Notes under the pieces: model-generated | Database searches by the model: none | What the model was told of the DNA's origin: nothing | What the model saw: the letters and a program-made list of their open reading frames with translations, nothing else | Virus record (IMG/VR): IMGVR_UViG_2695420793_000010 | DNA from: a virus | Lineage: Duplodnaviria; Heunggongvirae; Uroviricota; Caudoviricetes | Direction: 5' to 3' (one strand) | Length of the DNA: 9,214 bases | Made by a program: the position numbers and the translations under genes | Part shown: positions 1-9,214 of the stretch, in pieces | Position numbering within the stretch: the stretch's first letter is position 1 | How the letters are laid out: every line of letters begins with the position of its first letter

Positions 1-112
1 TCTGAGGCAGCACCTGGCACGGCTGGGACGGAAGTCGCTGTCGTTCTCAAAATCGGTGGAGCTGCATGACAAAGTCATCGGGCATTATCTGAACATAAAA
101 CACTATCAATAA
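1..112 (+). CDS. insB: IS1 transposase InsB, C-terminal fragment (partial at window edge)
   Basis: Translation matches the same InsB C-terminus as the 125-aa minus-strand ORF at 8821..9198; stop TAA at 110..112. Confidence 0.85.
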
Positions 113-127
113 GTTGGAGTCATTACC
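1..127 (+). mobile_element. IS1: IS1 right end (partial): 3' end of insB plus terminal inverted repeat ending at 127 (…aagttggagtcattacc); element body lies left of the window
   Basis: Frame-2 translation 2..112 gives [36 protein letters not shown], the InsB C-terminus; 105..127 is the reverse complement of the IS1 terminal repeat GGTAATGACTCCAACTTATTGAT. Confidence 0.9.
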
Positions 128-186
128 CTTCTTTCCTTCTTCGAACCAAACCGTGTACACCATCCGTTATCTGCGGAGGTGAGGCT

Positions 187-402
187 ATGAAATCCATGGA
201 TAAGTTAACAACGGGCATCGCCTACAGCACCTCTGCAGGCAGTGCTGGCTACTGGTTTTTACAGTTGCTCGATAAAGTCACGCCCTCACAGTGGGCGGCA
301 ATAGGTGTGCTGGGTAGCCTGGTATTTGGCCTGCTGACGTACCTGACAAACCTTTATTTCAAGATTAAAGAAGATAAGCGCAAGGCTGCGAGAGGTGAAT
401 AA
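187..402 (+). CDS. Class II holin, phage 21 S-like pinholin (71 aa) with dual-start motif
   Basis: MKSMDK… has Met1-Lys-Ser-Met4 (antiholin/holin dual start); GGAGGT at 176..181 five nt before the ATG; 71 aa; stop overlaps the endolysin start (TAATG). Confidence 0.9.
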
Positions 403-899
403 TGCCTCCATCATTACGAAAAGCCGTTGCTGCTGCTATTGGTGGCGGAGCAATTGCTATAGCATCAGTGTTAATTACTGGCCCAAGTGGTAACGATGGT
501 CTGGAAGGTGTCAGCTACATACCATACAAAGATATTGTTGGTGTATGGACTGTATGTCACGGGCATACAGGAAAAGACATCATGTTCGGTAAAACGTATA
601 CCAAAGCAGAATGCAAAGCCCTCCTGAATAAAGACCTTGCCACGGTCGCCAGACAAATTAACCCGTACATCAAAGTCGATATACCGGAAACAATGCGCGG
701 CGCTCTTTACTCATTCGTTTACAACGTGGGTGCTGGCAATTTCAGAACATCGACGCTTCTTCGCAAAATAAACCAGGGCGATATCAAAGGCGCATGTGAT
801 CAGCTACGTCGCTGGACATATGCTGGCGGTAAGCAATGGAAAGGTCTCATGACTCGTCGTGAGATTGAGCGTGAAATCTGTTTGTGGGGTCAGCAATGA
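402..899 (+). CDS. SAR endolysin (T4-lysozyme-fold, phage 21 R-like), 165 aa
   Basis: Gly/Ala-rich N-terminal signal-anchor-release segment ([20 protein letters not shown]) followed by a lysozyme domain with E…D…T spacing; start overlaps holin stop, stop overlaps Rz start (ATGA). Confidence 0.9.
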
Positions 900-1357
900 A
901 CAGAGTAACCGCGATTATCTCCGCTCTGGTTATCTGCATCATCGTCGGCCTGTCATGGGCTGTTAATCATTACCGTGATAACGCCATTACCTACAAAGCC
1001 CAGCGCGACAAAAATGCCAGAGAACTGAAGCTGGCGAACGCGGCAATTACTGACATGCAGATGCGTCAGCGTGATGTTGCTGCGCTCGATGCAAAATACA
1101 CGAAGGAGTTAGCTGATGCGAAAGCTGAAAATGATGCTCTGCGTGATGATGTTGCCGCTGGTCGTCGTCGGTTGCACATCAAAGCAGTCTGTCAGTCAGT
1201 GCGTGAAGCCACCACCGCCTCCGGCGTGGATAATGCAGCCTCCCCCCGACTGGCAGACACCGCTGAACGGGATTATTTCACCCTCAGAGAGAGGCTGATC
1301 ACTATGCAAAAACAACTGGAAGGAACCCAGAAGTATATTAATGAGCAGTGCAGATAG
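896..1357 (+). CDS. Rz: Rz i-spanin (inner-membrane spanin subunit), 153 aa from ATG 896
   Basis: N-terminal TM helix then coiled-coil-like charged region; position right after the endolysin; ATG 896 overlaps endolysin TGA 897..899; the ORF-track start at 884 is a GTG. Confidence 0.85.
1116..1298 (+). CDS. Rz1: Rz1 o-spanin (outer-membrane lipoprotein), 60 aa, embedded in the +1 frame of Rz
   Basis: Signal peptide with lipobox-like VVGC, proline-rich mature part ([16 protein letters not shown]); AAGGAG at 1103..1108 seven nt before the ATG; wholly inside Rz. Confidence 0.8.
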
Positions 1358-1381
1358 AGCTGCCCATATCGATGGGCAGCT
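1358..1381. terminator. Perfect 10-bp inverted repeat (agctgcccat-atcg-atgggcagct) between convergent Rz and bor; candidate bidirectional terminator
   Basis: Read directly: stem 1358..1367 / 1372..1381, 4-nt loop; sits between Rz stop (1357) and bor stop (1389..1391); no clear U-tract. Confidence 0.45.
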
Positions 1382-1388
1382 CATGCAA

Positions 1389-1682
1389 TTATTGTGAGCA
1401 ATACACACGCGCTTCCAGCGGAGTATAAATGCCTAAAGTAATAAAACCGAGCAATCCATTTACGAATGTTTGCTGGGTTTCTGTTTTAACAACATTTTCT
1501 GCGCCGCCACAAATTTTGGCTGCATCAACAGTTTTCTCCTGTCCAATTCCCGAAACGAAGAAGTGATGGGTGATGGTTTCCTTTGGTGTTACTGCTGTCG
1601 GTTTGTTTCCAACAGTAAACGTCTGTTGAGCACATCCTGTAATAAGCATTGCCAGAGCGGCAGAAAACAACATTTTTTTCAT
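1389..1682 (-). CDS. bor: Bor outer-membrane lipoprotein (lambda Bor / Iss family), 97 aa
   Basis: MKKMLFSAALAMLITGC… signal peptide with lipobox LITGC; near-identical to lambda Bor as recalled; AGGA 6 nt before ATG 1682; the 113-aa ORF in the track is an upstream in-frame extension. Confidence 0.9.
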   Translation of the reverse strand: MKKMLFSAALAMLITGCAQQTFTVGNKPTAVTPKETITHHFFVSGIGQEKTVDAAKICGGAENVVKTETQQTFVNGLLGFITLGIYTPLEARVYCSQ

Positions 1683-2168
1683 CTTATTATCCTGCATTGT
1701 TAAAAACGGCAGAATCCTATGTGACAACAATTAAACGATAGTTAAATGGATTGATGAAAATTAAAACTATATAGGTGTACGCTCAGACTATTGGAGGAAG
1801 TTGGGGACACTCAGAATCCTGTGGAATGAAATAAACCGGTCTATCCGTCTATTACCCTTTTAGCTGCGCTGTATCGTCGCCGTATTCCCGTATTAACAGA
1901 GACCGTAGCCCGACGGGGAACTCCTTCTGCGCGAGTATGCGGGAATAATCAAAAACGATGCACACCGGGTTTTTACCGCGTTTATGGTTCGCGGGTTTGT
2001 CCCTCATGCTCGCCAGTCCTGTGCGGGGGTGGAAGAAACAGGACACTTACACAGATTCTTGTGGGCACGATGCTATGCCTTTCTGGATTATCCCGATGCC
2101 ATTCATGCAAGGCGTTGTATCAGACGTTCGTCAGAGCTGTCAGGCTGACGGGTCCTCCCGGTGGGGTG

Positions 2169-2200
2169 GCCTGCCACGGGGCGGGAGCGTCGCGGAAAAA
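2169..2200 (+). other. cos site core (cosN-like): acg|gggcgggagcgt|cgcgg, resembling lambda acg|GGGCGGCGACCT|cgcgg
   Basis: Candidate 12-nt cohesive-end segment at 2179..2190; lies about 196 nt before the small-terminase start, as in lambda (about 190 nt); comparison is against the lambda sequence from memory. Confidence 0.5.
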
Positions 2201-2362
2201 GGCTAGTTTTTGCATTTCCATGGCGGCGGCAGCATGTTTGGTAATTTATTGATAATTAAAAGTTATTTCTCTTTTCAGCTGTACAATATTTTTTTCTCCC
2301 TGTCATTAGACTAGTTTGCAATTAATTGAAATATATAAATAAACCTGATTTTCACCTGCCAG
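2201..2362 (+). promoter_or_regulatory. cosB-like region: IHF-consensus site (minus strand, about 2242..2254, TATCAATAAATTA) flanked by three TTTC-N-CC-type repeats (about 2215, 2294, 2351)
   Basis: Matches WATCAANNNNTTR; the repeat spacing relative to cosN mirrors the lambda R3-I1-R2-R1 layout; loose pattern match only. Confidence 0.3.
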
Positions 2363-2374
2363 ATGGAGTTGCTT

Positions 2375-2902
2375 ATGTCAAATGTGAGCGGGATCGGTGA
2401 TGCTTATTACTGGAGTGTTTTTAAAATCGCCGAGGCCTTTGGGCTTCACCGGGACACAGTAAAAAAACGGCTCCTCGCGGCCAACACTCCTGTGGCTGCG
2501 ACTGTCAGGGGGAACCCCGTTTACGCCCTGCAGCATGTCGGGCCCGCCCTGTTTAGTGTGAAGCATGAGGCAGCAGACTCTGTTCATGATCCATCCCGTA
2601 TGGAGCCGAAAGAGAGAAAGGACTGGTACCAGTCTGAAAATGAAAGGATCAAGCTGGAAAAGGAGCAGCGAAAACTCATCCCAGTTGATGAAGTAGTCAT
2701 CGTCTATTCGTCCATGAGAAAGGCTGTCGTCCAGGTTCTGGAGACAATTCCGGATGTTCTTGAACGCGATTGCGCCCTGACTCCTCAGGCCGTCGGCGTT
2801 GTACAGCAGGCCATTGATGACCTGCGATACACTCTTCAGGAAAAATCCTACGAGGCTTGTGCTGCTGAATTAATTCCTGATGAGGAAGGAGAGAGTCTCT
2901 AG
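2375..2902 (+). CDS. Terminase small subunit (Nu1-like, winged-HTH DNA-binding N-terminus); possibly NohA/NohD-like
   Basis: GGAG at 2365..2368 six nt before ATG 2375; N-terminal pattern FKIAEAFGLHRDTVKKRL…PV…GNPVY parallels lambda Nu1 IFGASIRTIQNW…PV…GNEVLY; directly upstream of the large terminase; follows the cos site. Confidence 0.7.
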   Translation: MSNVSGIGDAYYWSVFKIAEAFGLHRDTVKKRLLAANTPVAATVRGNPVYALQHVGPALFSVKHEAADSVHDPSRMEPKERKDWYQSENERIKLEKEQRKLIPVDEVVIVYSSMRKAVVQVLETIPDVLERDCALTPQAVGVVQQAIDDLRYTLQEKSYEACAAELIPDEEGESL

Positions 2903-2910
2903 GAGGAATA

Positions 2911-4221
2911 ATGGGTTTTTCATCAGCCCGAAATTTGGGAAGGGACATATCGGCAGGATTTTCCCCACCACGTCGCATGCCGATTTCGGAGGCTGTTAAA
3001 AAATTCATGCGTGTTCCCAAGGGGGCTGGTAACTCGGTGCCATGGGATCCTGAACTGACACCCTACATCATTGAGCCCATGAACTGCCTGGCATCGCGTG
3101 AATACGATGCGGTGATTTTTGTTGGTCCTGCGCGAACAGGGAAGACCATTGGTCTGATCGATGGATGGATTGTCTATACCATCGTTTGCGATCCTTCGGA
3201 CATGCTCGTTGTGCAGATGACCGAAGATAAGGCCCGCGAGCATTCTAAAAAGCGCCTCGACAGAACGTTCAGAAGCAGTGCGGCGGTAAAGAAAAGAATG
3301 AGTCCACGTCGTAACGACAATAATGTCCATGATAAGACGTTCAGGGATGGCTCGTTCCTTAAAATTGGTTGGCCCTCGGTCAACATTATGTCGTCGTCGG
3401 ATTACCGGTTTGTCGCCTTAACCGATTACGACCGTTTTCCGGAGAATATCGACAGCGAGGGTGATGGTTTCTCCCTGGCCTCAAAACGTACCACCACATT
3501 TATGTCCGCCGGGATGACTCTGGTGGAGAGCTCGCCGGGACGTGACATCTGCGACAGCAAATGGCGACGTAAGTCGCCTCATGAAGCGCCACCGACGACT
3601 GGTATTCTTTCCCTTTACAATCGTGGTGACCGCCGCCGCTGGTACTGGCCATGTCCGCACTGCGGTGAATATTTTCAGCCAGCTATGGATGCCATGACCG
3701 GCTACCGTAATGAACCGGATCCCTTTAAAGCCAGTGAGGCGGCGTATCTACTTTGCCCACACTGCAGCGGCATTATCACTGCGGAGAAAAAGCGTGAGCT
3801 CAATAGTGCAGGAGTCTGGTTGCGTGAAGGTCAGGTCATTGATCGTAACGGCAACGTTTCCGGTGAACCGCGCCGCTCCCGTATCGCCAGTTTCTGGATG
3901 GAAGGGCCAGCTGCTGCGTATCAGGCCTGGGCGCAACTGGTTTACAAATTACTGACTGCAGAACAGGAGTATGAAGCGACAGGAAGAGAAGAAACACTCA
4001 GGGCGGTTATCAACACCGACTGGGGATTACCTTATCTTCCCCGCGCCAGCATGGAGCAACGAAAAAGTGAACTGCTTGAGCAGCGGGCAGAGCCAGTTCC
4101 TTCCCGCAGTGTGCCAGATGGCGTTAATTTCCTTGTGGCGACAGTGGATGTGCAGGCGGGACGTCATCGCCGTTTTGTGGTTCAGGTACCGGAGTCGGAA
4201 GTTGCCGGACCCTGCAGATGA
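2911..4221 (+). pseudogene. Terminase large subunit, GpA family, C-terminally truncated (436 aa versus about 640 aa full length)
   Basis: P-loop FVGPARTGKT, CPHCGE…LCPHC zinc-finger-like motifs and an INTDWG…VDVQ segment align with lambda gpA up to the start of the nuclease domain; AGGAGGA RBS at 2901..2907; ORF ends where the tail-fibre fragment begins. Confidence 0.8.
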
Positions 4222-5024
4222 AGGCGCATTACAGAAATGGTGGTCTGTTCTACCGTTCTTCAAGAGACGGTTATGGTTTTGAGGAAGGCTGGGCAGAAGT
4301 TTATACCTCGAAAAATCTTCCACCAGAAAGCTACCCAGTCGGCGCACCAATCCCGTGGCCATCAGATACCGTTCCGTCTGGTTATGCCCTGATGCAGGGG
4401 CAGACTTTTGACAAATCTGCCTACCCGAAACTTGCAGCCGCTTATCCGTCAGGCGTGATCCCTGATATGCGTGGCTGGACGATTAAGGGCAAACCTGCCA
4501 GTGGTCGGGCCGTATTGTCTCAGGAACAGGACGGCATTAAATCGCACACCCACAGCGCCAGCGCATCCAGTACGGATTTGGGGACGAAAACCACATCGTC
4601 GTTTGATTACGGAACCAAATCCACGAATAACACCGGGGCGCATACCCATAGTATTAGCGGGACCGCAAATAGTGCCGGTGCGCACCAACACAAGAGTTCC
4701 GGTGCATTTGGTGGCACGAACACGAGCATTTTCCCTAATGGTTATACCGCGATTTCAAATCTAAGCGCGGGGATTATGAGCACAACAAGCGGTAGTGGCC
4801 AGACTCGTAATGCAGGGAAGACATCATCAGATGGTGCTCATACCCACTCGCTGTCCGGCACTGCTGCAAGCGCAGGCGCACATGCACATACTGTCGGTAT
4901 TGGTGCTCATACGCACTCCGTTGCGATTGGCTCACATGGACACACCATCACCGTTAACGCTGCTGGTAACGCGGAAAACACCGTCAAAAACATCGCATTT
5001 AACTATATTGTGAGGCTTGCATAA
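4218..5024 (+). pseudogene. stf: Side tail fibre protein (Stf), C-terminal fragment only (268 aa ORF)
   Basis: …[11 protein letters not shown]…[49 protein letters not shown]…[31 protein letters not shown] matches the lambda Stf C-terminal region as recalled; the N-terminal fibre shaft is absent. Confidence 0.8.
4530..4960 (+). repeat. Histidine-rich repeat units (GAHTHS / GAHAHT / GSHGHT) inside the Stf C-terminal domain
   Basis: Repeated HxH motifs visible in the translation and as reiterated ggtgc(t/a)ca(t/c)ac(c/g)cac DNA units. Confidence 0.5.
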
Positions 5025-5605
5025 TGGCATTCAGAATGAGTGAACAAGCACGGACCATAAAAATTTATAATCTGCTGGCCGGAACTAATGAATTTATTGG
5101 TGAAGGTGACGCATATATTCCGCCTCATACAGGTCTGCCAGCAAACAGTACCGATATTGCACCACCAGATATTCCGGCAGGCTTCGTGGCTGTTTTCAAC
5201 AGTGATGAGGCATCGTGGCATCTCGTTGAAGACCATCGGGGTAAAACGGTTTATGACGTGGCTTCCGGCGACGCGTTATTTATTTCTGAACTCGGTCCGT
5301 TACCGGAAAATGTTACCTGGTTGTCGCCGGGAGGGGAATATCAGAAGTGGAACGGCACAGCCTGGGTGAAGGATACGGAAGCAGAAAAACTGTTCCGGAT
5401 CCGGGAGGCAGAAGAAACAAAAAACAGCCTGATGCAGGTAGCCAGTGAGCATATTGCGCCACTTCAGGATGCTGTAGATCTGGAAATCGCAACGGAGGAA
5501 GAAATCTCGTTGCTGGAAGCCTGGAAGAAGTATCGGGTGTTGCTGAACCGTGTTAATACAACAACTGCACCGGATATTGAATGGCCAGTAGCACCTATAG
5601 GGTAA
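5024..5605 (+). CDS. tfa: Tail fibre assembly protein Tfa (193 aa)
   Basis: [54 protein letters not shown]… closely matches lambda Tfa as recalled; start overlaps stf stop (TAATG). Confidence 0.9.
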
Positions 5606-5869
5606 ATTCGTAATGATTACCTAAATACGTTATTCTTTTGTTCAAAAAGTGATTTTGCTATAGGTAGGGAGTATGTTCTTGGATTAAGAATAAAAATCGC
5701 CATGAAAGAGCTTCATGGCGAGTACATAAACGTACAAAATATGATGAAAGTAGAGTGGCGTAAGCCACTATATTAAGATATGACAATAGCGAAGAAAAGT
5801 AAATAACATTTTATGGGCGTTTAATTGTCAATTATAAAAACTAGAGTGCCCGATATTGTTTATCTTGCT

Positions 5870-5971
5870 TTAAAATAATGTACTCAAACCAAATTTTTGA
5901 GCTAAAAGCTCAAATAATATAAATGCAATGATAATGTTTAATAAGACAATTAGCTTGCTTTGTATTTTCAT
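5870..5971 (-). CDS. Hypothetical 33-aa hydrophobic peptide (MKIQSKLIVLLNIIIAFILFELLAQKFGLSTLF); speculative
   Basis: ATG-initiated ORF translated by hand from the minus strand; one predicted TM-like core; no Shine-Dalgarno; AT-rich context makes chance ORFs likely. Confidence 0.1.
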   Translation of the reverse strand: MKIQSKLIVLLNIIIAFILFELLAQKFGLSTLF

Positions 5972-6142
5972 TTCGGAATACTGTTAAGTAACTTTGATGA
6001 CACTAACAATAGATCGGAATTTTCTTAGAGTCAATGGTCACTGTTTTTGCTTGCAAAGCAAATGTTTTTGGTGGTTATAAGTTTTCTTAATATAGTCACC
6101 TATGCAACTTGTTCCTTGTGGAGATTAAAGGTTAAAATTTAA

Positions 6143-6292
6143 TGCGAAGATGGAATTATAATATATTTTTTTATAATTAATTTAACCTTAACATCGTTGC
6201 TGGCGGCATGGAAGAAATATCGGGTCTTGCTGATGTCGTGTTGGCACTTCCTTAGTGCGGTTATCGAATGGCCAGCTGTACCTGTGGGGTAA
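6143..6292 (+). pseudogene. Decayed 3' remnant of a second tfa-like gene (encodes …[32 protein letters not shown])
   Basis: About 100 nt (6190..6292) align to the 3' end of tfa (5500..5605); translated tail parallels Tfa …[32 protein letters not shown]; no in-frame ATG, upstream frame closed at 6140..6142. Confidence 0.6.
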
Positions 6293-6424
6293 AAACTTTA
6301 TATGGGTGCTATTTTTATAATAGCTGGTAAAAACTGGCCGAACTGAAATTCACTGTTGATAAAAAAGATGTGTTTGAGTGTATGTCATTGTTTTCTTAAT
6401 GGAATCCACTAGAATGCAGCGAAT

Positions 6425-6622
6425 TTAAGAAGGTGGGTTTTTATTGGAATATAAACTACAATAATGCTCAACTCGTTCGTAGAATTGTTTTTTCTTATTT
6501 TTTGGAATGCTAACCATTATATGCATTATGGGGGCGATACTTCCTGATAATTTACATGATGCATACATTGAAGCAATAAATTCAATATCATTGTCATCAA
6601 AGTTAAAGCTTTCTCCGTCCAT
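6425..6622 (-). CDS. Hypothetical small protein (65 aa), acidic N-terminus; low-confidence
   Basis: ATG at 6622 preceded by AAGGA with a 6-nt spacer; no recognisable family; sits in AT-rich DNA. Confidence 0.2.
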   Translation of the reverse strand: MDGESFNFDDNDIEFIASMYASCKLSGSIAPIMHIMVSIPKNKKKQFYERVEHYCSLYSNKNPPS

Positions 6623-6947
6623 TTCAATTCCTTATGTGTTTGGCACAACTGATGCTGTATCCCATGAGAATTTATGCAAGTTGTTATGTTTGATTTGATA
6701 TTGCAATGATAATTGTAGCTAATTGTTTTCAATTGAGTGAAAGTTTATTTCGAGTGATTAAGTCGAAAAAAAAGATTTCTCACGGTTAGTAAGCGTATTA
6801 GGTTAGTATTCAGATATGAATGGTATTAATGACTAAATTTTCAATCATATATGGATTTTTATGCTGATGAAGATGTTTTATTTGGCGATTCGTCAAGCAT
6901 CTTCACTTAAGTAATCGTATATTTTAAGAGTGCAAAAGAGAAAGGGA

Positions 6948-7050
6948 CAACGTTGCTCGCACTCTGGATTAAATATAGGGTGTTGTTAAACTGCGTTGAT
7001 ACATAATTGTACCGGATATTGAGTGGTCTGAAGTCCCAGTCATTAAGTAA
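6948..7050 (+). pseudogene. Second decayed tfa 3' remnant (…LLALWIKYRVLLNCVDT* then frameshift …VPDIEWSEVPVIK*)
   Basis: Nucleotide and translated similarity to the tfa 3' end ([11 protein letters not shown]…[10 protein letters not shown]); in-frame stop at 7004..7006 and a frame change before the last block. Confidence 0.5.
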
Positions 7051-7338
7051 TCGTTTCGTGATATGCCGCAGAAACGTTGTATGCAATAACGTTCTGCGGT
7101 TGGCTGATGCACTTTCGAGAGTGTATTGAATAATTTCAATCCGTTATTGTTTTTACGCGTAACACCATGAAAAGACTGCTTATCTGTTGGGGTATTTTTT
7201 GGGGCATATATGGGACAGAAATAGGCCACAGATAGATAGTAAGATCGAACTCAGGATGCTTTTGAAAAAATGTAACTATCTGAAAAAACCTAGAAAGCGC
7301 CAAGGAAACCACAGAATGAGAAAAAACATCTGTGAATT

Positions 7339-8622
7339 ATGGATTTCCAGTTATATTCGCTCGGCGCAGCGTTGGTGTTTCATGAAATATTTTTTCCTGA
7401 ATCATCAACGGCAATGGCGTTAATTTTGGCAATGGGAACCTACGGTGCAGGTTATGTGGCGCGTATTGTCGGAGCATTTATTTTCGGCAAAATGGGCGAC
7501 AGAATAGGGCGTAAAAAAGTGCTCTTTATTACCATCACCATGATGGGGATCTGTACCACCTTAATTGGTGTGTTACCGACCTATGCACAGATTGGTGTTT
7601 TTGCCCCCATCTTGCTGGTGACGCTGCGTATTATTCAGGGGTTGGGTGCAGGTGCGGAAATTTCCGGTGCCGGTACGATGCTGGCGGAATATGCACCAAA
7701 AGGTAAGCGCGGAATTATCTCCTCATTTGTAGCTATGGGAACTAACTGCGGAACCTTGAGCGCAACGGCAATCTGGGCCTTTATGTTCTTCATTCTCAGT
7801 AAAGAGGAACTGCTGGCGTGGGGATGGCGTATACCGTTCCTGGCGAGCGTTGTCGTGATGGTCTTTGCTATCTGGTTACGTATGAATCTGAAAGAAAGCC
7901 CGGTCTTTGAGAAGGTTAATGACAGCAACCAACCCACAGCAAAACCTGCACCTGCTGGTAGCATGTTCCAGAGCAAATCCTTCTGGCTGGCAACAGGGCT
8001 GCGTTTTGGTCAGGCGGGTAACTCCGGGTTAATTCAGACTTTCCTTGCAGGCTATTTAGTGCAGACGTTATTGTTTAACAAAGCAATTCCAACAGATGCA
8101 TTGATGATTAGTTCGATTCTCGGCTTTATGACCATTCCGTTCCTTGGTTGGTTATCCGATAAAATTGGTCGCCGGATCCCGTATATTATTATGAATACCT
8201 CCGCGATTGTGCTGGCATGGCCAATGCTTTCTATCATTGTAGATAAAAGCTATGCCCCGAGCACCATTATGATTGCACTGATTGTGATTCATAACTGTGC
8301 GGTGCTGGGATTATTTGCTCTGGAAAACATTACCATGGCAGAAATGTTCGGCTGTAAAAACCGCTTTACCCGGATGGCCATTTCTAAAGAAATTGGTGGT
8401 CTTATCGCTTCCGGTTTTGGTCCTATCCTGGCGGGTATTTTCTGCACCATGACGGAATCCTGGTATCCGATCGCCATTATGATCATGGCATATTCAGTGA
8501 TTGGTTTAATCTCTGCGCTGAAAATGCCAGAAGTGAAAGACCGTGATTTAAGTGCGCTGGAAGACGCTGCGGAAGATCAACCGCGTGTTGTAAGAGCTGC
8601 GCAACCTTCCAGAAGTCTGTAA
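7339..8622 (+). CDS. ydfJ: MFS transporter, metabolite:H+ symporter family (ProP/ShiA/KgtP-like), YdfJ-like; 5' end probably disrupted
   Basis: 427-aa ORF with MFS signature GKMGDRIGRKK between predicted TM2 and TM3 and WGWRIPF motif; aligns to ProP/ShiA starting at their W-F/Y-D-F motif, so the N-terminal segment is short; no SD before ATG 7339. Confidence 0.85.
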   Translation: MDFQLYSLGAALVFHEIFFPESSTAMALILAMGTYGAGYVARIVGAFIFGKMGDRIGRKKVLFITITMMGICTTLIGVLPTYAQIGVFAPILLVTLRIIQGLGAGAEISGAGTMLAEYAPKGKRGIISSFVAMGTNCGTLSATAIWAFMFFILSKEELLAWGWRIPFLASVVVMVFAIWLRMNLKESPVFEKVNDSNQPTAKPAPAGSMFQSKSFWLATGLRFGQAGNSGLIQTFLAGYLVQTLLFNKAIPTDALMISSILGFMTIPFLGWLSDKIGRRIPYIIMNTSAIVLAWPMLSIIVDKSYAPSTIMIALIVIHNCAVLGLFALENITMAEMFGCKNRFTRMAISKEIGGLIASGFGPILAGIFCTMTESWYPIAIMIMAYSVIGLISALKMPEVKDRDLSALEDAAEDQPRVVRAAQPSRSL

Positions 8623-8631
8623 ATCCTCAAT

Positions 8632-8662
8632 CCCTTCTCTTACCGGAGAGGGGATTTTTATT
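8632..8662 (+). terminator. Rho-independent terminator candidate after the MFS gene (cccttctc-ttaccg-gagagggg then atttttatt)
   Basis: 8-bp stem with one G-U pair, 6-nt loop, followed by a T-rich run; 10 nt after the stop codon. Confidence 0.5.
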
Positions 8663-8710
8663 CATATAACAAAACATGTAGCTTGCCATATTTAAATTTA
8701 AGGAATTGTT

Positions 8711-8805
8711 ATGGGAAATAATTTGTTATCAGCAAAAGCGACACTCCCTGTTTATGATCGTAATAACCTGGCCCCAAGAATTGTTCATTTAGGCTTTGGT
8801 GCATT
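8711..8805 (+). pseudogene. ydfI: 5' fragment of a mannitol-dehydrogenase-family oxidoreductase (YdfI/UxuB-like), cut by IS1 after about 32 codons
   Basis: [31 protein letters not shown]| matches the family N-terminus (…RIVHLGCGAFHRAHQ… in UxuB); TAAGGA RBS at 8699..8704; the frame runs into the IS1 terminal repeat at 8806. Confidence 0.6.
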
Positions 8806-9214
8806 GGTAATGACTCCAACTTACTGATAGTGTTTTATGTTCAGATAATGCCCGATGACCTTGTCATGCAGCTCCACCGATTTTGAGAACGACAGTGACT
8901 TCCGTCCCAGCCTTGCCAGATGTTGTCTCAGATTCAGGTTATGCCGCTCAATTCGCTGAGTGTAACGCTTGCTGATTACGTGCAGCTTTCCCTTCAGGCG
9001 GGATTCATACAGCGGCCAGCCATCCGTCATCCATACCACGACCTCAAAGGCCGACAGCAGGCTTAGAAGACGCTCCAGTGTGGCCAGAGTGCGTTCACCG
9101 AATACGTGCGCAACAACCGTCTTCCGGAGCCTGTCATACGCGTAAAACAGCCAGCGCTGGCGCGATTTAGCCCCGACGTATCCCCACTGTTCGTCCATTG
9201 CCGGGCAGCGACGT
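8806..9214 (-). mobile_element. IS1: IS1 (partial, continues past window end), inverted relative to the left IS1; terminal repeat ggtaatgactccaacttactgat at 8806..8828
   Basis: Terminal inverted repeat read directly; encodes the InsB C-terminal region on the minus strand; differs from the left copy at several positions. Confidence 0.9.
8821..9214 (-). CDS. insB: IS1 transposase InsB (partial; N-terminus beyond window end)
   Basis: 125-aa [40 protein letters not shown]…[13 protein letters not shown] is the InsB core and C-terminus; the frame stays open to the window edge. Confidence 0.85.

Follow-up and report, generated by a model that had tools for sequence, protein, structure and literature searches.

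We analyzed a 9,214-nucleotide stretch of DNA, called the window below, that carries genes and sites of a lambdoid prophage. On the plus strand at 187-1357 lies a lysis cassette composed of the holin gene essD (187-402), the lysozyme gene rrrD (402-899) and the spanin genes rzpD/rzoD (884-1357), as read from the open reading frames and from the RefSeq annotation of an identical locus. It is followed on the minus strand at 1389-1682 by the iss/bor serum-resistance lipoprotein gene (iss, WP_000738423.1), which sits to the left of cos, and the Rz-bor region of the window is 94.7% identical to that of lambda. On the other side of the cos region, all on the plus strand, are an intact small terminase gene (terS, 2375-2902), a truncated gpA-type large terminase gene (terL', 2911-4188) with about 426 of 699 codons left, and two tail-fibre genes. 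The first of these, stf' (4189-5024), is a pseudogene that consists of the C-terminal ~279 codons of a side tail-fibre gene with Collar and Phage_fiber domains and is 87% identical to lambda orf-314, and the second, tfa (5024-5605; Caudo_TAP, 2.8e-42), is an intact tail-fibre assembly gene that is annotated as tfaQ and is 94% identical to lambda orf-194. Finally, an attR core at 7333-7347, at the ydfJ' junction of the Qin attachment site, marks the right end of a 24.4-kb element. This core was defined by the 15 nt that the two halves of the attP junction share where the element is present in tandem in strain ET791, with the 5' end of ydfJ found on the attL side.

An earlier note on this DNA had proposed a lambda-like cosN at 2176-2195 (ACGGGGCGGGAGCGTCGCGG) that agrees with the lambda junction at 17 of 20 positions. 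By direct count the agreement is 16/20, and a search with the lambda cosN 20-mer that allowed up to three mismatches gave no match anywhere in the window. The identification as a lambda-like cosN holds, since the start points of the cdtI and Tritos genome records, an exact cosQ, an IHF site and flanking CG dinucleotides all agree with it. Specifically, cosN is placed at 2177-2192, where a predicted 12-nt 5' cohesive end, GGGCGGGAGCGT, occupies 2179-2190 with CG on both flanks, and these conserved dinucleotides stand beside both predicted nick positions (2178/2179 on the top strand and 2190/2191 on the bottom strand). The overhang shares 8/12 bases with that of lambda, including all of base pairs 1-6. 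The mismatches are base pairs 7, 8, 9 and 11; they all belong to the cohesive-end half in which lambda-like phages show natural variation (PMC4669245). Two-fold symmetry of the 16-mer CG-GGGCGGGAGCGT-CG extends over 8/16 positions as compared with 10/16 in lambda. To the left of cosN, on the plus strand at 2150-2156, is GGGTCCT, an exact match to the lambda packaging-termination signal cosQ (lambda 48473-48479), with 29 nt from its start to the nick in the window versus 30 nt in lambda. This signal is reported to be highly conserved across lambda-like phages (PMC4669245). Note that cosQ lies outside the segment described in the earlier note, to the left of its start, and was missed there. Sequence similarity among phages and prophages starts immediately to the left of this signal. 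At least 16/20 agreement with lambda was reached in 2/300 first-order Markov random windows, and local alignment of the cosQ-cosN stretch to lambda scored 20 versus 9.3 +/- 1.8 for shuffled sequences, which places the resemblance to the lambda cos region above chance. The distance to the small terminase start codon also proved to be like that of lambda, as had been claimed, with 196 nt from nick to ATG (2179 to 2375) as compared with 190 nt.

Genomes of related phages further define this site. The GenBank records of cdtI (AB285204) and of Tritos, a phage from E. coli LF82 (OV696610, linear), both have as base 1 the equivalent of window position 2179, the first G of GGGCGGGAGCGT, a starting point that may have been set by the depositors through analogy with lambda. 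Loose independent support comes from the virion-derived assembly of mEp460_4F5, which has a break 5 nt off the predicted nick. Furthermore, the exact GGGCGGGAGCGT overhang is present in 77 of the 78 IMG/VR loci that encode the same TerS and have the cosN-like core CGGGGCGG ~196 nt upstream. A block composed of cosQ, cosN and the adjoining spacer (~2149-2211) is matched in mEp460, mEp213, mEp043, VT1-Sakai, Stx2 phages and one Klebsiella phage, all of which diverge from the window past about +33. The conserved spacer, CGGAAAAAGGCTAGTTTTT (2193-2211, plus strand), is located where lambda has its I2 region and is common to phages with other cosB and terS sequences, indicating that the same cosQ-cosN block is paired with different cosB/terS modules in other phages. 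The features at 2150-2375 agree with published rules for lambda-like cos sites (PMC4669245; PMC9026076), and Tritos is a plaque-forming siphovirus that makes virions (PMC9928086). Judged from its sequence, 2150-2362 is an authentic lambda-family cos region (cosQ, cosN, IHF site and cosB) of a Tritos/cdtI-type lambdoid phage.

Between cosN and terS, as is the case for lambda cosB, lies the presumed cosB (2212-2362, plus strand), the predicted TerS-binding region. An IHF-consensus site downstream of cosN, already pointed out in the earlier note, is confirmed as an exact match to the WATCAANNNNTTR consensus at 2242-2254 on the minus strand (TATCAATAAATTA, +64 to +76), a match expected 0.56 times per whole window. 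This predicted site would be the equivalent of lambda I1. The best lambda IHF site is located at +79 to +91 on the same strand as that of the window, and the 2242-2254 site is also found in cdtI and Tritos. Three TTTC-N-CC repeats had also been described as laid out like those of lambda cosB, but there are only two in the cos region (2293 and 2350), which is not above chance, and the whole window has 8 versus 5.5 expected. With two copies and no enrichment, TTTC-N-CC was rejected as a cosB repeat. A de novo repeat search of 2140-2380 yielded short A+T-rich pairs and a CAATTAATTG palindrome and nothing like R3/R2/R1. For phylogenetic footprinting we used 80 IMG/VR loci, in all of which TerS is 99-100% identical, and cosB is almost unchanged over the 56 distinct sequences, which is too little variation for footprinting. 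Within cosB the window differs from cdtI and Tritos at +100 and +134, and both alleles are common among prophages.

The terS gene codes for a protein of 175 amino acids from an ATG at 2375 that is preceded by GGAG at 5 nt, and an alternative in-frame ATG upstream at 2363 would give 179 amino acids. Its sole Pfam match is DUF1441 (PF07278, 151.8 bits, E = 1.6e-44), whereas lambda Nu1 matches PF07471, the Phage_Nu1 family, whose model threshold TerS does not reach and to which it does not belong. Pairwise searches gave no relationship to Nu1 by BLASTP (E = 4.6), and a phmmer search against PDB sequences returned unrelated proteins with a best E of 0.49. At the profile level, TerS matches phrog_141 ('terminase small subunit', 7.9e-65) with a cross-match to the phrog_57 profile of Nu1 at 1e-9, and the reciprocal cross-match to phrog_141 is 5.6e-8, with homology spanning most of the length. 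By these profile matches TerS is a remote homologue of Nu1, and is predicted to work like Nu1 though outside that Pfam family. The description of the small subunit as 'Nu1-like' is overstated, as the homology is remote and the Pfam family is DUF1441 and not Phage_Nu1.

In regards to the large terminase, the ATPase half was correctly reported as present, with a complete GpA_ATPase domain (PF05876, 2-247/247). The nuclease domain had been reported as gone; its first 95/294 positions remain (GpA_nuclease, positions 1-95 of 294) and the rest is lost. The open frame of terL' continues to a stop at 4221, and RefSeq lists the gene as a pseudogene with a missing C-terminus. Measured against gpA-type large terminases, the product has a whole ATPase and an incomplete nuclease and C-terminal end, and terL' is a pseudogene fragment of a true gpA-family member. 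The deletion junction was located at 4187-4192, a microhomology of TA(A/C)CGG, by alignment with the prophage that strain XH990 has in full length; the missing 19,812 bp extend from terL codon ~427 to stf codon 814. Prophages with this junction have no portal, capsid or tail-shaft genes, so that the description of all capsid and tail genes as gone is right for the capsid and the tail shaft in the carrier genomes, but 279 stf codons and tfa persist.

The element to which the window belongs is a 24.4-kb (24,432 bp) E. coli prophage in the Qin site at the 5' end of ydfJ, the known place of Qin integration (PMC6379469). It is flanked by rspB and ydfJ', shares the att core, and contains dicB, dicA, dicC, hokD and rem. 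Its parent is a 45.4-kb full prophage that occupies the same site intact in strain XH990 and is 99.9% identical and collinear to the element save for one deletion. Among 5426 complete E. coli genomes the junction occurs in 19, while this type of cos occurs in 886 (~16%). Annotation of the carriers indicates intact integrase, excisionase and replication genes as well as Q, and lysis genes, iss, cos and terS are also kept. In parent and derivative alike, Q is separated from the lysis and packaging genes by blc, a YbgA-family gene and IS1. An independent deletion from terL' to the tail genes is present in strains ET881 and SW071610. In 13 of the 19 carriers the genome contains no second locus resembling cos-terS-terL', which means that in these strains a helper would need to arrive by infection. 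Finally, in the assembly of strain ET791, which has many frameshifts, the element with its deletion already in place apparently occurs twice in tandem, joined at a clean attP junction and with a cos-to-cos interval of 25.7 kb. The clean attP junction implies Int-mediated recombination after the deletion.

These results make it very probable that the segment represents a Tritos/cdtI-type cos together with an intact terS and the first 426 codons of terL, left as a relic of a recent 19.8-kb prophage deletion. One illegitimate recombination event at the 6-bp microhomology, running from the middle of terL to the inside of stf, would account for the loss of 19.8 kb. The earlier note spoke of cos and terS as 'kept', which implies selection, but a single deletion of 19,812 bp, ~0.1% substitutions and occurrence in 19/5426 genomes point instead to recency. 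Selection for retaining cos and terS was rejected on the basis of a 19-genome clade with 99.9% identity to its parent, and need not be invoked for their presence; cos and terS are likely still there because the deletion ended to their right and there has been too little time for decay.

By itself the lone cos would be inert because the resident large terminase has lost its C-terminus and the greater part of its nuclease domain. A phage of matching specificity is expected to recognize the cos at 2150-2362. If the lambda mechanism applies, the terminase of a helper with the same TerS/cosB specificity would bind cosB aided by IHF, would then nick cosN at 2178/2179 and 2190/2191, and would translocate rightwards via terS, ydfJ and ydfI toward the mar locus, which lies ~23 kb away on that side. 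Under the same mechanism, with a single chromosomal cos the head would fill without a terminal cut, giving rise to a tailless, non-infectious particle. This is the outcome described for helper action on a lone prophage cos, where the motor stalls at a full head (PMC4669245). Since lambda-type packaging runs from cosN to terS to terL, bor and the lysis cassette, which form the last-packaged end, would not be loaded from a lone cos. The suggestion that packaging would enrich bor/lysis-cassette DNA therefore appears misdirected, as the lone cos should point rightwards and away from both. To yield mature DNA that can be transduced, a second cos oriented like the first would be required, as provided by concatemers of the excised element or by a tandem array. 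Packaging in trans by a helper in the manner of a cosmid, as had been envisaged, is plausible in light of the Sp4/Sp14 precedent in O157, but would probably occur only if the element were excised and concatemeric, or in tandem.

Comparison with known phages illustrates what has been preserved and what has been lost. From cosQ (-29) to the terS start there are 3-6 substitutions in 230 nt relative to Tritos and cdtI, which have the same GGGCGGGAGCGT, IHF site and TerS (175/175 amino acids identical). Window positions 2179-4192 are 99.1-99.4% identical to the first 2014 bases of these phages, and 423-424/427 amino acids of TerL' are identical to theirs. The difference is that Tritos and cdtI have a 699-amino acid large terminase and all head and tail genes, whereas the element has 19.8 kb deleted. 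With lambda, the window shares the order cosQ, cosN, IHF site, terS and gpA-type terL, an identical cosQ heptamer and an IHF site on the same strand, but differs at overhang base pairs 7, 8, 9 and 11 and in having an unrelated cosB sequence, with no R3/R2/R1 set found in 2140-2380. Since its cosB and TerS are unlike those of lambda, the lambda terminase is not expected to initiate here.

E. coli K-12 has a relic of this kind, likewise located at ydfJ, and the cos/terS remnant is of an ordinary and already known type. In K-12 Qin, with the order cos-nohA-stfQ-tfaQ, lambda cosQ-cosN is found in perfect form ~189 nt upstream of nohA, this gene forms a fusion with stfQ, and head and tail-shaft genes are absent. 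The K-12 version differs in that its cos is lambda-type (GGGCGGCGACCT), its NohA belongs to the Nu1 family with a C-terminus altered by the fusion, and there is no terL fragment. K-12 Qin is also older and more decayed, while the annotation of the present element still lists int and xis as intact. The nohD gene of DLP12 is a case similar to the cos-nohA of K-12 Qin. A literature search on docL gave unrelated papers only.

We also considered whether the remnant is a helper-dependent mobile element, similar to a cosmid or cos-satellite, that forms infectious particles and thereby spreads iss/bor and the lysis cassette. Its cos is near-identical, and its TerS identical, to those of functional phages, the carriers by annotation have intact integrase, excisionase and replication genes and an intact Q, and the tandem copies in ET791 create a cos-to-cos interval. 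There are also precedents. In O157 Sakai, Sp4, which is without a working terminase, is packaged in trans by the Sp14 terminase through a shared cos (PMC2669165), and cos-type PICIs have no morphogenesis genes, carry a lambda-like cosN and rely on the TerL and TerS of a helper (PMC9026076; PMC6092414). However, Sp4 has a near-full-length genome and co-resident helpers, while the element is about half a genome in length and most carriers are without a related terminase locus (13/19 have no resident helper). Cos-PICIs are specialized satellites of 10-15 kb that encode regulators of their own and use Rpp to retarget the helper TerS, whereas the element keeps the TerS and cosB of the phage itself. 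A PICI-type satellite was rejected as a description of this locus, which is a collinear, 99.9% identical deletion derivative of the 45.4-kb full prophage in which no gene for capsid size or packaging redirection was recognized.

The amount of DNA available for packaging is a further consideration. A dimer of the element (48,864 bp) is 1.04-1.05 times the size of a helper genome, which can be counted in favor of mobility, but is also at or past the upper packaging limit. At 0.53 of a helper genome for the monomer and 25.7 kb for the ET791 interval, both lengths fall far under the lower limit of lambda, reportedly placed by Feiss and colleagues at roughly 75%. A single chromosomal cos would moreover package away from iss and the lysis genes and then stall, the tandem copy in ET791 needs confirming given the frameshifts in that assembly, and the carriers form a small clade with no sign of spread. 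We consequently regard an infectious, helper-dependent element as unlikely. A more specific version, in which the 24.4-kb remnant is an incipient cos-type satellite that Tritos/cdtI-type helpers package as a head-to-tail dimer of 48.9 kb, in this way moving iss, is given a smaller chance still. It draws on the attP junction in ET791, which suggests ongoing excision and integration, and on the retention of replication genes, Q, lysis genes, cos and the element's own TerS.

A role in interference is highly improbable. According to this proposal the orphan cos would act as a decoy for terminase and proheads, and TerS together with a nuclease-less TerL', composed of a TerS-binding N-terminus and the ATPase, may poison the terminase of an invader, giving partial protection. 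Initiation at the cos of a resident prophage is reported to produce inactive particles and to lower the yield of the infecting phage (PMC4669245), the intact TerS has the same sequence as in phages now in circulation, the ATPase domain of TerL' is complete, and the cos type is common (886/5426 genomes). Against this, one chromosomal cos facing hundreds of replicating phage genomes would be expected to have a small effect, terS and terL' may not be expressed, blc, the YbgA-family gene and IS1 intervene between Q and the packaging genes, and the architecture occurs in 19 genomes with no signal of selection for it. As for a G+C-rich 20-mer that only looks like lambda cosN by chance, the 16/20 rather than 17/20 match and the TTTC-N-CC count would fit such a coincidence, but it is effectively refuted by its agreement with the first base in the genome records of two phages, the exact cosQ and IHF site at proper distances, the same 12-mer in 77/78 loci that have this TerS and a cosN-like core ~196 nt upstream, the conservation of the cosQ-cosN block among many lambdoid phages with different cosB, and the rarity of 16/20 matches (2/300 random windows).

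With a recent deletion relic as the preferred explanation, the locus has little importance beyond correct annotation. In terms of gene transfer, the lone cos would aim packaging at ydfJ, ydfI and mar, and by lambda rules dead-end particles are expected. Dimer packaging, if it were true, would add a further way for iss to move, and O157 already provides a demonstration of the principle that a shared cos allows defective prophages to be mobilized. The analysis does place a previously unannotated cos, with cosQ at 2150-2156, an IHF site at 2242-2254 and predicted nicks at 2178/2179 and 2190/2191, for a group of lambdoid prophages that is common in E. coli. The small terminase of this common prophage group is still labelled DUF1441.

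The sequence comparisons made here indicate that the earlier note was right to read the 2176-2195 region as a lambda-family cos, the phage packaging start, with an orphan small terminase gene. The 20 bases at 2176-2195, ACG-GGGCGGGAGCGT-CGCGG, match the lambda cos junction at 16 positions by direct count rather than at the 17 claimed by that note, and a search of the window for the lambda 20-mer with three or fewer mismatches found no site. A match of this 16/20 grade was reached in 2 of 300 Markov-1 random windows, while alignment to lambda bore out the resemblance, with a local score of 20 across the span from cosQ (the termination signal) to cosN (the nicking site) versus 9.3 ± 1.8 for shuffled sequences. 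CG flanks the overhang on both sides, its left half is the same as that of lambda, and the mismatches fall at overhang positions 7, 8, 9 and 11. This is exactly the pattern published for lambda-like phages, in which overhang variation is confined to bp 7-12 (as in Gifsy-1, where positions 8, 9 and 11 differ) and cosQ is invariant (Feiss and colleagues, PMC4669245). Note that GGGCGGGAGCGT is exact in 77 of the 78 IMG/VR loci in which a cosN-like core lies ~196 nt upstream of a gene for the same small terminase.

As judged from where phage genome records start, the comparative evidence for a cos is far stronger than these random-match statistics. Specifically, the GenBank records of cdtI (AB285204) and Tritos (OV696610, deposited as linear) both have as base 1 the position corresponding to window 2179, where the proposed cohesive end has its first G, and window 2179-4192 is 99.1-99.4% identical to the first 2014 bases of both phages. 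E. coli LF82 carries Tritos as a prophage, which makes virions, plaques on MG1655 hsdR- and has been imaged as a siphovirus (PMC9928086). The record of a related phage, the virion-derived assembly mEp460_4F5 (LR595868.1; L093/L094), begins 5 nt before the predicted nick at 2178|2179, and its sequence there is GGGCGGGAGCG-CGG, three bases fewer than in its relatives. These record ends look like an assembly collapse at cohesive ends, and the break gives loose support for the nick position.

An exact copy of the lambda cosQ heptamer, GGGTCCT, lies at 2150-2156, with 29 nt from its start to the nick as compared with 30 nt in lambda. Similarity to phages and prophages starts abruptly just left of cosQ, indicating that the functional site begins 19 nt ahead of the start coordinate previously proposed (2169). 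The cosQ-cosN-spacer block (~2149-2211) is also found in mEp460, mEp213, mEp043, VT1-Sakai, several Stx2 phages and Klebsiella phage Kp4865-4, with 83-100% identity (window 2149-2211 versus loci L005-L009), and all of these phages diverge past ~+33 (counted from the nick), a mosaic boundary at the start of cosB beyond which cosB is unrelated and the small terminases are different. A shared cosQ-cosN block with swapped cosB and terS fits the division of labor in which TerL reads cosN and cosQ and TerS reads cosB (PMC9026076). Within cosB, the IHF-consensus site reported downstream of cosN is confirmed as an exact match, TATCAATAAATTA, on the minus strand at 2242-2254 (+64..+76), against an expectation of 0.56 such sites for the whole window; it shares its strand with the lambda I1 region and lies close to where that region is placed (+79..+91). 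The three TTTC-N-CC repeats said to accompany it are reduced to two in the region, and the window total of 8 compares with 5.5 expected. R sites in cosB were picked out neither by repeat search nor by conservation, for which the relatives are too alike. VT1-Sakai has CATCATCATC and an inverted GATGATGAT on either side of an A+T-rich stretch, an arrangement resembling the R3-I1-R2 layout. A perfect 10-bp palindrome that cdtI and Tritos conserve, CAATTAATTG, is also present within cosB at 2319-2328 (+141..+150), overlapping a one-mismatch IHF-like site.

The small terminase gene (2375-2902) is intact, and its product is identical to the Tritos and cdtI TerS at 175 of 175 residues. Its description as Nu1-like holds for function and remote homology but not for family membership, as TerS belongs to Pfam DUF1441 and not to Phage_Nu1, and BLASTP against Nu1 gave no significant match. 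The remote relationship is seen in PHROG, where TerS matches phrog_141 at 7.9e-65 and phrog_57 at 1e-9, and lambda Nu1 matches phrog_57 at 1.3e-76 and phrog_141 at 5.6e-8, cross-matches that join the two families both ways over most of their length. The truncated large terminase gene, terL', retains ~426 of 699 codons with a whole GpA_ATPase domain, so the ATPase half is kept as had been stated, but the nuclease domain is not wholly gone (the first 95 of 294 GpA_nuclease positions remain).

Window positions 1-8805 match, at 100% identity, a locus on the chromosome of 18 complete E. coli genomes (e.g. AR_0128). RefSeq annotation of this locus shows a lambdoid prophage flanked by rspB and a 5'-truncated ydfJ, the site at which the cryptic prophage Qin is attached in K-12 (PMC6379469). 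The prophage genes run in the order int, xis, exo, ydfD, dicB, dicA, dicC, replication genes, hokD, rem and Q; then blc, a YbgA-family gene and IS1; then essD, rrrD, rzpD and iss (bor-like); and finally the DUF1441 protein, a 'terminase gpA' without its C-terminus, a 'phage tail protein' without its N-terminus, tfaQ and ydfJ'. Thus the reported loss of capsid and tail genes is correct in that the annotation contains no portal, capsid or tail-shaft genes, but the tail-protein fragment and tfaQ remain. At the same site, and with the same IS1/blc/iss cargo, strain XH990 has a prophage of full length (45.4 kb) that shares 99.9% identity with the window. Relative to it, the window lacks IS903B and has a single 19,812-bp deletion that starts at terL codon ~427 and stops at side tail-fibre codon 814, with an imperfect 6-bp microhomology, TA(A/C)CGG, at the endpoints, leaving an element of 24,432 bp from attL to attR. 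Among 5426 complete genomes the deletion junction occurs in 19, versus 886 with this cos type (708 with cos, terS and the 5' part of terL), which is the signature expected of a recent, lineage-restricted deletion derivative. Nothing suggests selection for keeping cos and terS. In parent and deleted prophage alike, Q is parted from the holin gene by blc, the YbgA-family gene and IS1A, upstream of the window (17045-20187 in L001, the annotated identical locus; 14740-17882 in L010, the XH990 prophage), so late transcription of lysis and packaging genes may be impaired already in the 'intact' parent.

Packaging of this region in trans by a helper is plausible in principle, by analogy with known systems, and from a lone cos it would probably be abortive. 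As the resident TerL fragment is predicted to be unable to cut or dock, the cos would stay silent until a phage of the same specificity grows in the cell, and this helper must presumably come from outside, since 13 of the 19 carriers have no second cos-terS-terL'-like locus even at blastn sensitivity. Given the identical TerS, a Tritos/cdtI-type terminase would be expected to bind cosB with IHF and nick cosN. Packaging would then run lambda-fashion towards terS, loading terS, terL', stf', tfa, ydfJ', ydfI and onwards, with the mar locus ~23 kb to the right; this direction argues against the enrichment of bor/lysis-cassette DNA proposed earlier, as iss/bor and the lysis genes lie on the other side. 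Without a second cos the head would fill and the motor stall, giving a tailless non-infectious particle, for which the docL particles of lambda (Sternberg and Weisberg, 1975) are reportedly the classical counterpart. Such an outcome has been stated for exactly the case of a lone prophage cos under helper action (Feiss and colleagues, PMC4669245).

For transfer to be productive, two cos sites pointing the same way would be required. The element monomer is 0.53 of the Tritos genome and a dimer of 48,864 bp would be 1.054x Tritos and 1.039x cdtI. These dimer ratios lie at the limit of lambda head capacity. One carrier, ET791 (NZ_CP100906.1; locus L092, 1-47370), does contain two head-to-tail copies of the already-deleted 24.4-kb element, linked through a clean attP junction whose core overlap is 15 nt (18600-20600 of L092). 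This tandem implies that Int-mediated recombination took place after the deletion and still acts on the remnant, in an assembly that is rich in frameshifts and needs confirmation. Its cos sites share one orientation and are separated by 25,666 bp, too little DNA for a lambda-size head. Satellites that carry a cos are known, namely the PICIs. Mobilisation via a shared cos is an already established concept, as in O157 Sakai, where a terminase-defective prophage is packaged in trans (Sp4/Sp14; PMC2669165).

Relics of this kind are common, the cos-terS-terL' form arises repeatedly, and an orphan cos with a small terminase in a deleted prophage is an already known kind of low importance. The window architecture is the same as that of the best-studied E. 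coli strain, K-12, in whose Qin prophage a perfect lambda cosQ-cosN precedes nohA by ~189 nt; nohA is fused to stfQ and followed by tfaQ, and head genes are absent. A terL'-tail' deletion of independent origin is present in ET881 and SW071610, in a different Qin-site prophage; in these strains (ET881, L091 4355-6752; SW071610, hit H76) a 164-aa DUF1441 terS is followed by a truncated terL joined to part of a tail protein and, immediately after it, by a truncated ydfI.

Both ends of the window (1-112 and 8806-9214) are IS1 sequence. The final 409 bases are IS1 at a position where none of the 18 matching genomes, and 0 of the 5426 complete E. coli genomes searched, has it, and this copy, just past ydfJ', shares only 94% identity with the IS1A that precedes essD. 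Between tfa and attR, a 1.7-kb A+T-rich stretch (5606-7338; 30-36% G+C) has a single annotated gene, which encodes a hypothetical protein of 65 aa (minus strand, 6425-6622), and is interrupted in XH990 by IS903B at about window position 6810; this stretch is probably cargo (a 'moron' region). Finally, a full-length match to Rfam family IS009 (RF02111; 229 bits) is located on the plus strand at 5367-5565, inside the 3' half of tfa.
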